DNA from: Candidatus Aminicenantes bacterium
Lineage (GTDB): Bacteria > Acidobacteriota > Aminicenantia > Aminicenantales > Saccharicenantaceae
Length of the DNA: 64,000 nucleotides
Direction of reading: 5' to 3'
NCBI GenBank assembly: GCA_037447475.1
Contig: JBBIGP010000004.1
Location: 7,713-71,712, forward strand
Shown: piece after piece, positions 9,097 to 47,002 of the stretch
Layout of the letters: each line of letters begins with the position of its first letter
How positions within the stretch are numbered: the first letter of the stretch is position 1
The notes under the pieces: model-generated
The model's input: only the letters and a program-made list of their open reading frames with translations
The model's database searches: none
Told to the model about the DNA's origin: nothing
Position numbers and translations under genes: made by a program

Positions 9097-11088
9097 TCAC
9101 AGGTCCAGCTCGAGCTCGCGCTTCTTGAGGCGGGTCAGCTCGTCGCGGTAGCCGGCGGCCTTCTCGAACTCGAGGGCCCGGGCCGCCTCCTTCATGAGCT
9201 TTTCGAGCTCCTCCATCCGTTTCTTGCGCTTCTGCGGCGACAGGTAGATCTCCTTGTCCTCGGCGACCCGGGTGTAGTCGAGGTAATCGCGCTCGTAGAC
9301 GCTGGACAGGACGGCGTCGATGCCCTTGACGATGCTCTGGGGCGTGATCCCGCGGGCCGCGTTGTAGTCCCGCTGGAGGAGGCGGCGCCGGTCGGTCTCG
9401 TCGATGGCCGCCCTCATCGAATCGGTCACCGTGTCGGCGTAGAGGATGACCCGGCCGGCGACGTGGCGGGCCGCCCGGCCGAAGGTCTGGACGAGGGCGG
9501 TCGCCGAGCGGAGGAAGCCCTCCTTGTCGGCGTCGAGGATGGCGACCAGGGAGACCTCGGGCAGGTCCAGGCCCTCGCGGAGAAGATTGATGCCGATGAG
9601 GGCGTCGAACTCCCCCTTGCGGAGGTCGCGGAGGACCTTGACCCTGTCCAGGGTCTCGACCTCGGAATGGAGGTAGCGGACGCGCAGGCCGAGCTCGTGA
9701 TAGTGGCGGGCCAGGTCCTCGGCCATCTTCTTGGTCAGGGTCGTGACCAGGACCCGCTCGTTGCGGGCGGCCCGGGCCCGGATCTCGCCCATGAGATCGT
9801 CCACCTGGCCTTTGACGGGCCGGACCTCAAGCTCGGGGTCGGTCAGGCCGGTCGGCCGGATGATCTGCTCCACGACGCGGTCCGGGGCCTTCGCGAGCTC
9901 GTAGGGGCCGGGCGTCGCCGAGACATACAAGACCTGGCCGACGCGCCCTTCGAACTCGTCGAAGTTCAGAGGCCGGTTGTCGAGGGCCGACGGGAGCCGG
10001 AAGCCGTGTTCGACGAGGGTCGTCTTCCGGGAGCGGTCGCCGGAGTACATGCCGCCGATCTGGGGGACGGTGACGTGGGATTCGTCGATGATCGTCAGGA
10101 AGTCCCCGGGGAAATAGTCGAGGAGAACGGCGGGCGGCTCGCCGGGCCGGCGGCCGCTGAGATGCCGGGAGTAGTTCTCGATGCCCGGGCAGTATCCGAA
10201 CTCGCGGAGCATGTCGAGGTCGTAGAGGGTCCGTTCCTCGATGCGCTCGGCCTCGACGGCTTGCCCGCGGCGCAGGAAGTGCGCGACGCGCTCGGCCAGT
10301 TCCGCCTCGATCCCGGCGACGGCGGCGCGGAGGACGTCGGGGGGGGTCGAGAAGAACGTCCGGGGGTGGATCATGACCGACTCGAGGGACTTGAGCGTCG
10401 TGCCGAGCAGGGGATCGACGAACGAGAGGGCCCGGATCGCCCCGTCCTCGAGCTCGATGCGGATGGCCGAGTTCTCGTAGCTCGGGAAGACCTCGACGAT
10501 GTCGCCCCGGACGCGGAAGCTGCCGCGCTTGAAGTCGCCCTCCTGGCGCTCGTACTGGACGGCGACGAGCTTGTCGAGCAGGGCCTTGCGGGTCGTGGGC
10601 CGGCCGACGGCCAGGCTGAAGCTCATCGAGTAGTAGGTCTCGGGGGCCCCGATCCCGTAGATGCAGGAGACCGAAGCGACGACGATGACGTCGCGGCGGG
10701 CGAAAAGGGAGTTCGTGGCGCAGAGGCGGAGACGGTCGATCTCGTCGTTGATGGTCGCTTCTTTGGCGATGTAGACGTTCGAGGCGGGGATGTAGGCCTC
10801 GGGCTGATAATAATCATAGTAGCTGACGAAATACTCGACGGCGTTCTGGGGGAAGAAGCGCCGGAACTCCTGGTAGAGCTGGGCGGCCAGGGTCTTGTTG
10901 TGGGAGATGACCAGGACGGGGCGGCCGACGCGCCCGATGATGTTGGCCATCGTGAAGGTCTTGCCGGATCCGGTCACGCCCTTGAGGACCTGGTGGCGTT
11001 CGCCCTTCTCGAGTCCCTCGGTCAGGCGGTCGATGGCCCGGACCTGGTCGCCCTTGGGTTCGAACTCGGAGCGTAACGTGAAATTCAT
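9097..11088 (-). CDS. uvrB: excinuclease ABC subunit B (start trimmed to Met63 of ORF = [15 protein letters not shown])
   Basis: [14 protein letters not shown] Walker [33 protein letters not shown], helicase C domain and C-terminal UvrB/UvrC interaction coiled coil ...[18 protein letters not shown]. Confidence 0.95.
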
Positions 11089-11146: not shown

Positions 11147-11527
11147 CTAGGACTTGGCTCCCGTCCGGATGCCGCCCTTGAATCGGGCTCCGTCCGCGAC
11201 CGTGATCTTCGGGGCGGCGACATCGCCGTCCATCCGGGCGGTATCGAAGATCTGGACGCGTTCGCCGGCGTCAACGTTGCCCGCGAGCTCCCCGTGAAGG
11301 ACGAGGGTCCGGACCTTGATCTCGCCCTCGGCGCGGGCCCCCTTGGCGACGGTCAATGTCCCGGACGGGAGCGTGATCGTTCCTTTGAGCCGGCCTTCGA
11401 TGAGGACGTCCTCGTGGGCCTCGAGATCCCCTTGGACGACGACGCTCGGCCCCAGGCGCGTGGCGCCGGGACGCCCGGTCCGTTCCGAGGATGAGTTCTG
11501 GGCCTGGCTGGCTTTTTCGTCCGACAT
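11147..11527 (-). CDS. bactofilin-family cytoskeletal protein (DUF583)
   Basis: 126 aa, beta-helical repeat pattern ...[66 protein letters not shown]... with N-terminal disordered tail. Confidence 0.75.
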
Positions 11528-11646
11528 GGGTGGTCCTCCCGTCTGGCCGGTCTGAACGGTCCACTGCGATTATAGGGGGGCCTCCGGAGCCTGTCAACGC
11601 TGCTTTGAAACGCCCGGGAAATGTGCTAGAATGCGGCTTTCCGTGA

Positions 11647-11721
11647 GCGGGCATAGCTCAATGGTAGAGTACCGGCTTCCCAAGCCGGGTGTTGTGGGTT
11701 CGAGTCCCATTGCCCGCTCCA
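11647..11721 (+). tRNA. tRNA-Gly (anticodon CCC), CCA encoded
   Basis: gcgggcatagctcaatggtagagtaccggcttCCCaagccgggtgttgtgggttcgagtcccattgcccgctcca: 7-bp acceptor, D-arm, anticodon loop ttCCCaa, T-arm GGTTCGAGTCC; coordinates read by hand, +/-2 nt. Confidence 0.85.
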
Positions 11722-11729
11722 TTTTTTTA

Positions 11730-11819
11730 GAGGGGGTCAAATCTCCACTTATTAAATTTTGGACGGCGCGTCGACCATGAACGAAAAATTCGATAATAAG
11801 TGGAGATTTGACCCCCTCT
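11730..11819. repeat. AT-rich ~90 bp palindromic element, copy A (30-bp inverted arms gagggggtcaaatctccacttattaaatttt around 24-bp spacer)
   Basis: Left arm at 11730-11760 is the near-perfect reverse complement of 11785-11819. Second copy at 46834-46921. Sits between tRNA-Gly 3' end (preceded by T7 run) and the LipB-like gene start. Confidence 0.8.
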
Positions 11820-11863
11820 GGTCTTTGATCGTTGAGCCGGAACCCCTCCCCGGGGCCCGGAAC

Positions 11864-12613
11864 ATGGCCGTCGACGAGCATCTTTTCTTCTTGGCTCAGG
11901 CCCGGCCGCGAACTTTCCTGCGCTTCTACCGCTGGGAGCGGCCGACGGTCTCCCTCGGCTTTTCCCAAGAGGCGGACAGAGTCGCCGACCTCGATTTCTG
12001 CCGGAGGAACGGCATCGATGTCGTCCGGAGGCTGACCGGCGGCAAGCTCGTCCTCCATCACCGAGAGGTGACCTACTCCGTCGCCTCTTCGGACACCGCC
12101 CGCTTTCGCGAGACGGTGCGCGACTCCTACCGGCTCATCTCCCGGGCCCTGCTCGCGGGTCTCGAGCTCCTGGGAATCCCCTCCCGGATGGCCGGCCCGG
12201 CCCCGCCGTCCTACGCCCGGGGGACCATGCCCTGTTTCGCCCACGCGGCCCGCGATGAGATCGAGAGCGGCGGCCGCAAGATCATCGGAAGCGCCCAGAA
12301 AAGGCTCGGGCCGGCCTTTCTCCAGCACGGATCCATCCCCCTCGAGGACGACACCGCCCTCCTGGCGGCCGTGTCGCGTCCCGGCGGAGCGGGGCCCGGC
12401 GGAGGAATGACCTCCCTCTCCGAGGCCGCCGGCCGCCCCGTCGATTTCGCCGCCGCCGTGTCCGCCCTGTCCCGTGGCTTCGCCGATTCTTTCGGGGTGG
12501 AGCTCGTCCCGTTCGCCCTCGGTCTTGCCGACGAGAGCGCCGTCTCCGCCCTCCGATCCGCCAGATACGGCGACGAGGCCTGGACCCTGCGCCGCCCGCC
12601 CGGGCCTCGTTGA
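11864..12613 (+). CDS. lipoate-protein ligase/octanoyltransferase family protein (BPL/LPL catalytic domain)
   Basis: Trimmed to MAVDEHLFFLAQARPRTFLRFYRWERPTVSLGFSQ...RRNGIDVVRRLTGGKLVLHHREVTYSVA; typical LipB/LplA core with conserved Lys in ...GRKIIGSAQKRL... Confidence 0.7.
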   Translation: MAVDEHLFFLAQARPRTFLRFYRWERPTVSLGFSQEADRVADLDFCRRNGIDVVRRLTGGKLVLHHREVTYSVASSDTARFRETVRDSYRLISRALLAGLELLGIPSRMAGPAPPSYARGTMPCFAHAARDEIESGGRKIIGSAQKRLGPAFLQHGSIPLEDDTALLAAVSRPGGAGPGGGMTSLSEAAGRPVDFAAAVSALSRGFADSFGVELVPFALGLADESAVSALRSARYGDEAWTLRRPPGPR

Positions 12614-45477: not shown

Positions 45478-46830
45478 GTGACGAAAGGACGGTGGACCGT
45501 GCGTTTCGGATCGTTCGTTGGTGTCATAGGGCTTGTGGGAATGTTTGTCGTTCTTGCCGGGGTTTCCGGCTGCAGGGGAGGCGGGCGGCCGGTCCCCTCC
45601 GAGGATGTCGCTGTGACGGTCAAGCCGGGCGTCGAGGTCTTCCTCGAGAGATATGTCGGGCTCGTGGAGGGCAAGCGCGTCGGCCTGATCACCAACCCGA
45701 CGGGAGTGGATGGGCGCCTGCGGTCGACGGTGGACCTGTTCGCCGGGAGCCCCGATATCGACCTGGTCGCGCTCTATGGCCCCGAACACGGCGTCAGGGG
45801 GAACGCGCAAGCCGGCGAATACGTGCCGTTCTACATCGACGACAAGTACGGTTTGCCCGTTTTCAGCCTCTACGGACAGTCGTTCAAGCCCCCGCCGGGC
45901 ATGCTCAAGGACATCGACGAGCACATGCGGTCGTTCGACACGGACATCGCCGGGAAGGTCCCCGAGAAAGCCATGGTCGAGAGCGTCGACGTCCTCGTCT
46001 TCGACGTCCAGGACGTGGGGACGAGGGTCTACACCTATATCGCCACCATGGCTTACGCGATGCAGGCGGCGGCCGAGAGCGGCATCGAGGTCATCGTCCT
46101 GGACCGCCCGAACCCCGTCAACGGCGTGGACATGGAGGGGCCGATCCTGGAGTATCCCGCATTCAGCTCGTTCGTCGGGCTCTATCCCGTCCCTGAGCGC
46201 TTCGGCATGACGATGGGCGAGCTGGCCCTGCTCTTCAACGACAGGTTCCTGGAGAAGAAGGCCCGTCTGACGGTCGTCGCCATGGAGGGCTGGAAGAGGC
46301 CGATGTGGTTCGACGATACGGGACTGCCCTGGATCATCCCTTCGCCCAACATGCCGACCCTCGACACGGCCACGGTCTATCCGGGCCAGGTCTATATCGA
46401 GGGGACGAACATGTCGGAAGGCCGGGGTACGACCCGGCCGTTCGAGCTGTTCGGAGCGCCTTGGATCGACGGCCACGAGCTGGCGAAAAGGCTCAACGGG
46501 CTCGGCTTGCCGGGCGTCGTCTTCCGGGAGACCTGGTTCACGCCGTGGTTCTCCAAGTTCCAAGGGCAGCTCTGCGGAGGCTGCCAGGTCCATGTCACGG
46601 ACAGGGAGGCATACCGGTCGTTCGGGACCGCGCTGCACGTCATCAAGACGGTCCGGGACATGTATCCGGACAAGTTCGCCTTCCATGCGGACTACTTCGA
46701 CAAGGTCATGGGGACGGACAAGGTCCGCCGGGCTCTCGAAGCGGGGGAGACCGTCCCAGCGATCCTCGAGAGACTGGAGCCCGGGCTGGCCGCCTTCGCC
46801 GCGCTCCGCCGCCCGTATCTGCTCTATTAG
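45478..46830 (+). CDS. DUF1343 family protein (exo-beta-N-acetylmuramidase NamZ-like), lipoprotein
   Basis: 450 aa; lipobox VLAGVSGC; conserved ...VGLITNPTGVD...VALYGPEHGVRG...VLVFDVQDVGTRVYTYI...LDRPNPVNG... Confidence 0.75.
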   Translation: MTKGRWTVRFGSFVGVIGLVGMFVVLAGVSGCRGGGRPVPSEDVAVTVKPGVEVFLERYVGLVEGKRVGLITNPTGVDGRLRSTVDLFAGSPDIDLVALYGPEHGVRGNAQAGEYVPFYIDDKYGLPVFSLYGQSFKPPPGMLKDIDEHMRSFDTDIAGKVPEKAMVESVDVLVFDVQDVGTRVYTYIATMAYAMQAAAESGIEVIVLDRPNPVNGVDMEGPILEYPAFSSFVGLYPVPERFGMTMGELALLFNDRFLEKKARLTVVAMEGWKRPMWFDDTGLPWIIPSPNMPTLDTATVYPGQVYIEGTNMSEGRGTTRPFELFGAPWIDGHELAKRLNGLGLPGVVFRETWFTPWFSKFQGQLCGGCQVHVTDREAYRSFGTALHVIKTVRDMYPDKFAFHADYFDKVMGTDKVRRALEAGETVPAILERLEPGLAAFAALRRPYLLY

Positions 46831-46833
46831 CAA

Positions 46834-46921
46834 GAAGGGGTCAAATCTCCACTCATTAAATTTTCAGCTGCCATGTCGTCGGGAAATCGAAAAATTTAAT
46901 GAGTGGAGATTTGACCCCCTC
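46834..46921. repeat. AT-rich ~88 bp palindromic element, copy B (arms gaaggggtcaaatctccactcattaaatttt / revcomp, 25-bp spacer)
   Basis: Arms 46834-46864 and 46890-46921 are reverse complements with a single mismatch; the same element is at 11730-11819. Both copies carry compensatory substitutions (cttatta vs ctcatta) that keep each copy self-complementary. Confidence 0.8.
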
Positions 46922-47002
46922 TTGTTGCATCCTTGCCGCTGTTCCCATAAAATGAATGCTCTTGCCTTACGGAGCCACAATCATAAAAAGGAGAGCGACG
47001 AG

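Follow-up and report, generated by a model that had tools for sequence, protein, structure and literature searches.

Candidate REPIN-like hairpin doublets sharing their arms with a TIRYT-type transposase gene in Candidatus Aminicenantes

Genes that resemble those of RAYTs (REP-associated tyrosine transposases; REP, repetitive extragenic palindrome) and are flanked by long inverted repeats have been named TIRtrons, and the proteins that they encode TIRYTs (Di Nocera, De Gregorio & Rocco 2013, PMC3733652). TIRtron loci share a GGGGWSAS motif, come with moderately abundant repeat families whose members are often dimers, and include a sharply defined Acidobacteria group (PMC3733652). Most TIRYTs belong to subclass 2.1 of the TnpA-REP proteins (Quentin et al. 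2018, PMC6006769), equivalent to RAYT Group 1 of Bertels. This subclass, the second largest of the Y1 subclasses and listed without REP association, is characterized by a C-terminal helix-turn-helix domain resembling Bac_DnaA_C (PMC6006769) and by the motifs NH[YF]H or NHVH, W[EQ] or FQ, Y[IV]HLNP or YIELNP, and SS (PMC6006769 Table 1). Here, we describe a hairpin repeat, hereafter named copy A, that lies between a tRNA-Gly gene and a lipoate-ligase-like gene in a stretch of 64,000 nucleotides from Candidatus Aminicenantes (hereafter the window). Copy A is most likely a REPIN-like (REP doublet forming hairpin), non-autonomous hairpin doublet that shares its arms with a Y1/HUH transposase of the TIRYT type (TnpA-REP subclass 2.1). 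The family, which has not been described before, is a new member of the TIRYT/TIRtron class, a known but so far little-studied one, and reveals no new kind of system. It occurs in uncultivated Aminicenantes and, unlike the known TIRtron families, appears in neither PMC3733652 nor PMC6006769; our literature search returned no paper linking Aminicenantes with such repeats.

A dispersed family of doublets and the transposase gene between the same arms

An exact 22-mer of the arm (GGGGTCAAATCTCCACTYATTA) was scanned in one genome per species, covering 185,579 species. It was present at 48 loci in three metagenome-assembled genomes (MAGs) and nowhere else among these genomes. Two of the MAGs are labelled Candidatus Aminicenantes. 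The third, titled 'uncultured Eubacteriales bacterium' (GCA_964423315.1, CAYREO01; loci L005-L007 among others), shares the repeat family and the transposase with the Aminicenantes MAGs, has housekeeping proteins ~90% identical to theirs, and has genes ~90% identical to those of the window; the title is probably a mislabel. With the exact 22-mer only, at least 22, at least 13 and at least 13 loci were counted in the three incomplete MAGs, and the 64-kb window holds two copies. An earlier interpretation made from the letters of the window alone (hereafter the sequence-only reading) had called copy A a dispersed repeat and had considered that these two copies might be the only ones. The second copy (copy B, 46832-46923) and the 48 loci, all outside the window, bear out the dispersal and remove that reservation.

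Relaxed matching over the 48 loci and the window gave 47 convergent doublets and 13 unpaired arms, of which six flank the transposase gene. Each doublet is made of two convergent terminal inverted repeats (TIRs) of 28-34 nt around a short unconstrained spacer, following the plan AAGAR-GGGGTCAAATCTCCACTYATTAA, a spacer of 28-96 nt and the arm in inverse orientation. The profile built from 107 arms is near-invariant at positions -4 to +23 (AAGAR GGGGTCAAATCTCCACTYATTAA), and conservation ends in the A/T-rich tail that follows. Copies A and B, read from either strand as RNA, fold into a long hairpin of -51 to -57 kcal/mol (z -8 to -10), as the sequence-only reading had expected; as single-stranded DNA they reach -33 and -34.5 kcal/mol (z -9.7 to -9.8). 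A single arm as DNA gives -0.8 kcal/mol (z +0.6), no better than shuffles. Because single arms do not fold, the repeat unit is an inverted repeat and not a self-palindromic REP. The possibility that each arm forms a REP-like hairpin of its own was also considered and rejected: the 6-bp stem proposed by a terminator scan, which contains G-T pairs, was unstable on folding. In one doublet (L045 4905-4998), the arm is substituted at three positions (10, 14 and 16), and the partner arm carries the matching change every time. This variant may represent a sub-family of its own or the trace of evolution that preserved the structure.

At one locus in each of the three MAGs (L017, L021 and L038), a + arm and a - arm ~1065 nt apart enclose an open reading frame (ORF) of 321 amino acids, and the same order of + arm, Y1 ORF (319-321 amino acids) and - arm is seen across L017, L021, L038, L049 and L070. 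The product matches Pfam Y1_Tnp (E 7e-10) and NCBIfam REP_Tyr_transpos (E 2e-17). Its N-terminal half is a Y1/HUH domain, and its C-terminal half resembles the DNA-binding domain of DnaA. It contains the motifs NHYH (at residue 59), FQG (98), YIHVNP (119) and WSS (138), and the HUH motif (H60-Y-H62) and Y119-I-H-x-N-P are invariant in 31 aligned homologues. We placed the family in the TIRYT class and subclass 2.1 because these motifs fit, with V in YIHVNP for the L of Y[IV]HLNP, and because the arm start comes near to GGGGWSAS: GGGGTCAA, invariant in the 107 arms, agrees with it at seven of eight positions, the last being A and not S. More than 6000 homologues were retrieved, many of them of ~320 amino acids, from Aminicenantales or Acidobacteriota, and several are labelled RayT by JGI.

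An AlphaFold model of the transposase (pLDDT 80) was compared with known structures by Foldseek. The best match in the Protein Data Bank (PDB) was 4ER8, the E. coli TnpA-REP bound to a REP hairpin, followed by the transposases of IS200, IS608 and ISDra2 (2F4F, 2VHG and 2XQC). The C-terminal domain matched the DnaA DNA-binding domain (3PVP, TM 0.73). A profile built from 31 sequences and searched against the PDB also returned 3PVP, DnaA domain IV, over residues 254-316 (E 5e-4); a single-sequence Pfam scan of the transposase did not report this DnaA-like domain. The profile and the structure model were needed because single-sequence phmmer against the PDB gave spurious matches only.

The transposase gene is present as one tblastn match per MAG among the fetched loci. 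Relatives that are 65% (L049) and 51% (L050) identical lie between SIS_2-like and lysine-2,3-aminomutase-like genes, and the same neighbours flank the gene in L017, L021 and L070. Since it is syntenic across lineages down to 51% identity, we regard it as single-copy and vertically inherited. Despite this synteny and inheritance, its G+C content is 51-53% (61-65% at third codon positions) against 62-66% in its surroundings, as read at L021 153-1118, L049 10001-10960 and L050 10001-10975. The arms differ along with the protein: the 65% relative has nearly the same arms, and the 51% relative has variant arms (AAAACGGGGTCAAACCTCCACTTTTACAG). A metagenome scan with the variant arm gave 15 loci, 13 of them with convergent doublets of the same architecture and an AAGAC/GTCTT foot. 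The arms of this sister family also start with GGGGTCAA; the foot is AAGAR in the present family and AAGAC in the sister family, and a GTAG tag is found in neither. At L049, a second hairpin lies between the left arm and the transposase start (9859-9922; 30-nt arms, 4-nt loop, -23 kcal/mol, z -6.7). Its arms are of a related but diverged type (GGGGGGCAAACCTACACTT); the hairpin could be a relic, or else belong to a second family of repeats nested inside the locus.

The exact lipoate-ligase protein of the window and a transposase locus (L070) are both present in sequencing run SRR11582151. The product of this locus (P0249) is 95% identical to P0001, and the left inverted repeat of the locus equals the copy A left arm over 32 nt. 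On this co-occurrence, the transposase gene is probably present in the window's own genome. A 1095-bp contig (L071, Logan SRR11582151_347465) extends exactly from one arm of the transposase locus to the other, from which we conclude that the arm repeats fragment short-read assemblies.

The family resembles the TIRtron/TIRYT systems in its long inverted repeats, not self-palindromic REPs, that flank a RAYT-like Y1 gene, in its moderately abundant dispersed arms, here 47 dimers and a few solo arms, and in its long protein with a C-terminal Bac_DnaA_C-like helix-turn-helix. Unlike what is listed for subclass 2.1, it shows a clear link to dispersed doublets, which is shared by a sister lineage and in which the gene remains syntenic over 51% identity. 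Likeness to the REPIN-RAYT systems of Pseudomonas and Enterobacteria (Bertels & Rainey 2011, PMC3116915; RAYT Groups 2 and 3) is found in the inverted units with a short spacer that form a long hairpin, in the single-copy, vertically inherited tyrosine transposase flanked by the same units, and in the dozens of extragenic copies kept at orthologous sites without target-site duplication. However, the present unit is not palindromic and has no GTAG tag; the copy number seems lower, with at least 13-22 loci in each incomplete MAG where those systems have hundreds; the spacers are unrelated, while REPIN spacers are usually related within a population; and the transposase is of another subclass, with an extra DNA-binding domain. 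The sequence-only reading had offered 'REP-like element' as one option, which holds for a dispersed hairpin repeat built from the arms of a transposase gene but not for the single arms, which are neither palindromic nor tagged. As for the TnpA of IS200/IS605 elements (IS608, ISDra2), the HUH/Y1 fold, the insertion without duplication and the presumed single-stranded hairpin substrates are common to both. In contrast, IS200/IS605 ends are two different subterminal hairpins and not long inverted repeats, the tyrosine motif is Y---Q and not YIHVNP, and the elements are multi-copy and horizontally mobile, whereas the present gene is single-copy and syntenic.

On the model of IS200/IS605 TnpA and of E. 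coli TnpA-REP, DNA that is transiently single-stranded would let the two arms pair, forming a long hairpin. The transposase would recognise the arm sequence, possibly aided by its helix-turn-helix domain, and its catalytic tyrosine would cut at the AAGAR/YTCTT feet. The doublet would then be moved or copied as a unit, without target-site duplication, and the copies would be inherited vertically, with arms staying near-invariant and complementary and the loop drifting freely. We infer that the transposase mobilises the doublets, that it is catalytic and acts on a single-stranded hairpin, and where it would cleave, from biochemistry established for IS200/IS605 and TnpA-REP enzymes only. The DnaA-like domain may contribute recognition of duplex DNA or of the arms; speculatively, ATCTCCACT in the arm recalls the DnaA box TTATCCACA (six of nine positions by eye). 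With a sequence-defined TIRYT-type transposase and hairpin repeats traceable across related uncultivated genomes, with filled, decayed and empty orthologous sites and with a sister family whose arms have co-varied, the family is a test case for whether subclass 2.1 enzymes mobilise doublets and for what the DnaA-like domain recognises.

Conservation of the doublets and rival explanations

Orthologues of copy A are present in L003 and L053, and orthologues of copy B in L009 and L020; by this comparison both window copies are old. Over 13 orthologous pairs, identity is 94% in the arms, 74% in the spacers and 80% in the flanks. In the window's own orthologous pairs, the arms are kept, while identity is near-random in the spacers and in the neighbouring intergenic DNA outside the repeat. 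Spacer inversion was examined as a cause of the unrelated orthologous spacers; both orientations were scored, and it found no support. Neutral saturation is the simpler reading, since the intergenic DNA next to copy B but outside the repeat has diverged just as much. Arm position 18 (T or C) is matched in the partner arm (27 T:T, 14 C:C and 6 mixed; Fisher p 4e-7), and at the locus that the window shares with L003 it differs between the two on both arms; position 0 of the foot (A or G) shows no co-variation between arms.

Comparison of the spacers left 12 of 1081 pairs above the shuffled null, and 11 of these 12 are orthologous loci or duplicate contigs. In L002, a 113-aa gene stands between two doublets that share their spacer and differ in their flanks, and the solo arm L019:952 keeps a spacer paralogous to that of L019:2766. 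Read from these spacers, whole doublets are occasionally copied as a unit. The L002 arrangement (294-853) is composite-like, the 113-aa ORF (396-737, - strand) being bracketed by nearly identical doublets in direct orientation, and could move or duplicate the enclosed gene. At L051, the element orthologous to copy A has decayed and no longer folds.

Several results weigh against reading copy A as a REPIN-like doublet of a TIRYT-type transposase. The NCBIfam RAYT match is below the curated cut-off (63 against 80 bits), the sequence similarity to 4ER8 is marginal (profile E 0.2), and 4ER8 was not among the phmmer matches mentioned above. Tblastn of the 64-kb window found no transposase gene, and the placement of this gene in the window's genome relies on its co-occurrence with the lipoate-ligase protein in a single run, SRR11582151. 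With few exceptions, non-orthologous copies have unrelated spacers, which implies that whole doublets have seldom been copied recently and that the majority of copies are old. A host function or gene conversion, and not recognition by the transposase, could account for the conserved arms. For TIRYT/subclass 2.1 proteins, our literature search returned no experimental study and no report of transposition, binding or cleavage, and the papers that use the term are all purely computational.

A different explanation is that the doublets are primarily host RNA structures (bidirectional terminators, 3' mRNA stabilisers or insulators) selected at each locus, with an incidental or historical link to the transposase. 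We consider this unlikely. It would account for copy B starting just after a stop codon and upstream of a conserved -10-like site and ribosome-binding site, for the overlap of several copies with a stop codon (TAAGAR; 35 of the 107 arms have T at position -5), for the G+C-rich stem base followed by YTCTT on both strands, and for arms kept at orthologous sites while the surrounding neutral DNA diverged; such roles are reported for REPs (PMC3733652). Gene orientation was assigned with a strict composition-based caller, right in 38 of 40 test cases, where simpler callers were misled by shadow ORFs and over-extended starts. It placed 17 doublets between tandem, 11 between divergent and 10 between convergent genes, with 43 adjacent 3' ends against 42 5' ends, which is about the random expectation and shows no gene-end bias. 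A U-tract is lacking, and the terminator scan returned one site against 0.9 expected at copy A and none at copy B. Moreover, a terminator requires a structure and not a 28-nt invariant sequence, the same arms flank the transposase and co-vary with it, and L051 has retained the locus while its orthologous copy decayed.

A classical miniature inverted-repeat transposable element (MITE), that is, an internally deleted insertion sequence of the DDE type moved by cut-and-paste through its TIRs, would also be short, non-coding and dispersed in intergenic DNA with TIRs of ~30 nt. Bacterial MITEs such as RUP, NEMIS/Correia and ERIC likewise form hairpins beside genes and can alter gene ends. However, they derive from DDE insertion sequences and show target-site duplications, neither of which was found here. 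Direct repeats at nine boundary offsets in 58 doublets were not above the permuted null, with no duplication at any boundary, nor did empty and filled orthologous sites at the tRNA-Gly locus reveal one. The sole gene found between these arms encodes a Y1/HUH protein and not a DDE transposase, and the doublet interiors are related neither to the interior of the transposase locus nor to one another. An origin of this kind is thus extremely unlikely, and of the 'MITE-like non-autonomous mobile element' proposed in the sequence-only reading, the dispersed, non-coding element sharing arms with a transposase gene remains, with a Y1/HUH parent and without the target-site duplications that it had suggested looking for. 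It is very unlikely, too, that copy A acts in locus-specific cis-regulation, either as an operator for a dimeric regulator or as a 5'-leader hairpin of the lipoate-ligase-like gene. Copy A does lie in the 5' region of this gene and overlaps its start, where a hairpin would sequester or expose candidate start codons, and the DnaA-like helix-turn-helix domain of the transposase could bind duplex arms. Against this, dozens of unrelated loci share the sequence, in every kind of gene context, and relatives carry the gene without the element, only 17 nt after the tRNA. An operator is improbable because the spacing of the arms varies from 28 to 96 nt, unlike its fixed geometry, and a leader hairpin would be at most a local side-effect at the copy A locus.

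The sequence-only reading had also proposed the tRNA 3' end as a target. Doublets adjoin a tRNA gene at two distinct loci only, tRNA-Gly(CCC) and tRNA-Arg(TCT) (L007/L033 and perhaps L022), about the chance level by a rough estimate. Since there are only two such loci, tRNA targeting is not a property of the family. Beside the doublet of L022 (1696-2217), we noted an odd cluster of tRNA-Pro (+), tRNA-Arg (+) and tRNA-Pro (-), which may be a rearrangement at the tRNA-Arg/Pro locus that bears the doublet in L007 and L033.

Taking copy A as a REPIN-like doublet, a broader proposal is possible, which we put forward tentatively and judge somewhat short of an even chance. Subclass 2.1 would maintain in Aminicenantes a true REPIN-like, vertically inherited partnership, composed of a syntenic, single-copy, domesticated transposase with a DnaA-like DNA-binding domain and of co-evolving doublets whose arms are under purifying selection at orthologous sites across genus-level divergence, with occasional exaptation, as of the start codon and N-terminus of the lipoate-ligase-like gene. 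If true, the 'ancient intragenomic replicator' model would reach beyond Proteobacteria and RAYT Groups 2 and 3, and a host-level role would be indicated for the DnaA-like domain.

Copy A and the start of the lipoate-ligase-like gene

Copy A follows the tRNA-Gly gene behind a T7 run, as the sequence-only reading had described. Its proposal of 30-bp arms around a 24-bp spacer was close: the core arms are 26 nt each, 100% complementary and 39 nt apart, and with a 3-nt bulge (CGA, 11791-11793) the pairing continues through AATTTT/AAAATT, giving arms of ~32 nt and a G+C-rich loop of 23 nt. The G+C content of the window is ~66%, and not ~68% as stated there. The tRNA-Gly gene is the left neighbour of copy A, outside the repeat, and is identical in the orthologous L003, L051, L052 and L053. 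The T7 run is flanking sequence that predates copy A, judging from its presence in the element-free L052.

Some 100 homologues of the lipoate-ligase-like protein open with M-K-x-W-x-L-I-V-E-P. In L052, an orthologous locus without the insert, the gene starts 17 nt past the tRNA CCA, in the order CCA-T7-ATGAGGGTCT-ATG AAA TAT TGG (MKYWQLIVE); in L051, the native start is intact and lies behind the decayed element. The window, L003 and L053 have lost the native start codon, and in all three the right arm is joined directly to the conserved Trp codon (TGG 11819 in the window). The conserved N-terminus W-x-L-I-V-E-P begins at TGG 11819-11821, which shares the last base of the right arm, and copy A therefore touches the coding sequence. 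The sequence-only reading had placed the element 44 bp before the start of a LipB-like gene, which holds relative to ATG 11864 but not for this conserved N-terminus, which overlaps the right arm.

The candidate start codons in the window are ATG 11777, TTG 11825 and ATG 11864. The public gene call (P0121, 278 aa, N-terminus MNEKFDNKWRFDPLW) starts at ATG 11777 inside the copy A loop, and its first 14 codons are loop and right arm. In L003 and L053, the arm variant TAATGAG itself creates an ATG, giving MSGD(L/V)TP(I/S)W... (P0122, P0123, P0125). The window arm reads TAATAAG in a different frame, and its sole upstream in-frame ATG is that of the loop. Arm repeats of this kind cause wrong or ambiguous start calls, here a public call that begins inside a repeat. 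The caution in the sequence-only reading that translated arms could mislead annotation is justified in that public calls include arm residues; yet, because the native start codon was lost, these residues may be genuine coding sequence of the gene. In the scenario that we propose, copy A would have landed in the 17-nt gap between tRNA-Gly and the lipoate-ligase-like gene, and a small deletion would then have left the element supplying the 5' end of the gene.

In the element-free L052 (2910-3010), no separate promoter is visible between the tRNA-Gly and lipoate-ligase-like genes. Because the gene lies only 17 nt after the CCA there, this arrangement suggests a tRNA-mRNA co-transcript, and in the window the hairpin would now lie inside the presumed transcript.

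Feature coordinates, copy B and neighbouring sequences

Table 1. Coordinates of copies A and B and of adjoining features in the window
Feature	Position	Strand	Basis or remark
tRNA-Gly(CCC), encoded CCA	11647-11721	+	ARAGORN; Rfam tRNA, 70.3 bits
T7 run between tRNA and element	11722-11728	+	same in orthologue L052, which lacks the element
Copy A left arm (AGAG foot, GGGGTCAAATCTCCACTTATTA core, AATTTT)	11729-11760	+	inverted repeat; nhmmer, 107-arm profile, E 6e-12
Copy A loop/spacer, with ATG 11777 and 3-nt bulge CGA	11761-11793	+	sequence unconserved
Copy A right arm (same arm, inverted)	11794-11819	-	100% complementary to 11729-11754; nhmmer E 7e-10
Lipoate-protein ligase/octanoyltransferase-like gene (BPL_LplA_LipB)	11777-12613	+	ORF 11759-12613; homologues
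Copy B left arm (AAGAA foot, GGGGTCAAATCTCCACTCATTA, AATTTT)	46832-46864	+	nhmmer E 1e-12
Copy B loop/spacer	46865-46890	+	unrelated to the copy A spacer (alignment; shuffled null)
Copy B right arm	46891-46923	-	nhmmer E 3e-12

A 23-nt arm core has four matches in the window at up to three mismatches, against none in 100 shuffles. In an Rfam search of the window, only two tRNAs reached the gathering threshold and the hairpin copies matched no family; at E<=1, the sub-threshold matches were plant miRNA-precursor models only, as for generic long hairpins.

Copy B begins 1 nt past the TAG stop of the upstream gene (46828-46830), and the ATG of the next gene (47003) lies 79 nt downstream of its right arm. 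In the interval up to this ATG, a -10-like sequence (CCATAAAAT) and an AAGGAG ribosome-binding site are conserved in the orthologues L009 and L020. These features lie in 46925-46953 and 46986-46995, and the remaining intergenic DNA is not conserved. The accompanying -35 (TTGCAT) is a weak one that the scan did not list.

Upstream of the tRNA-Gly gene, a back-to-back promoter-like pair lies within 11569-11632 (two sites by scan against 0.1 expected). A perfect TTGACA-17-TATAAT on the - strand (11597-11569) faces a bactofilin-like gene (11147-11527), and TTGAAA-16-TAGAAT with an extended TG on the + strand (11605-11632) directly precedes tRNA-Gly. In the region upstream of tRNA-Gly in L053 (~2775-2825, CAYREO MAG), three tandem copies of a ~14-nt unit (CGCTTTGACGGGAC) run across the -35-like TTGAC; the unit is present as a single copy in the other genomes.

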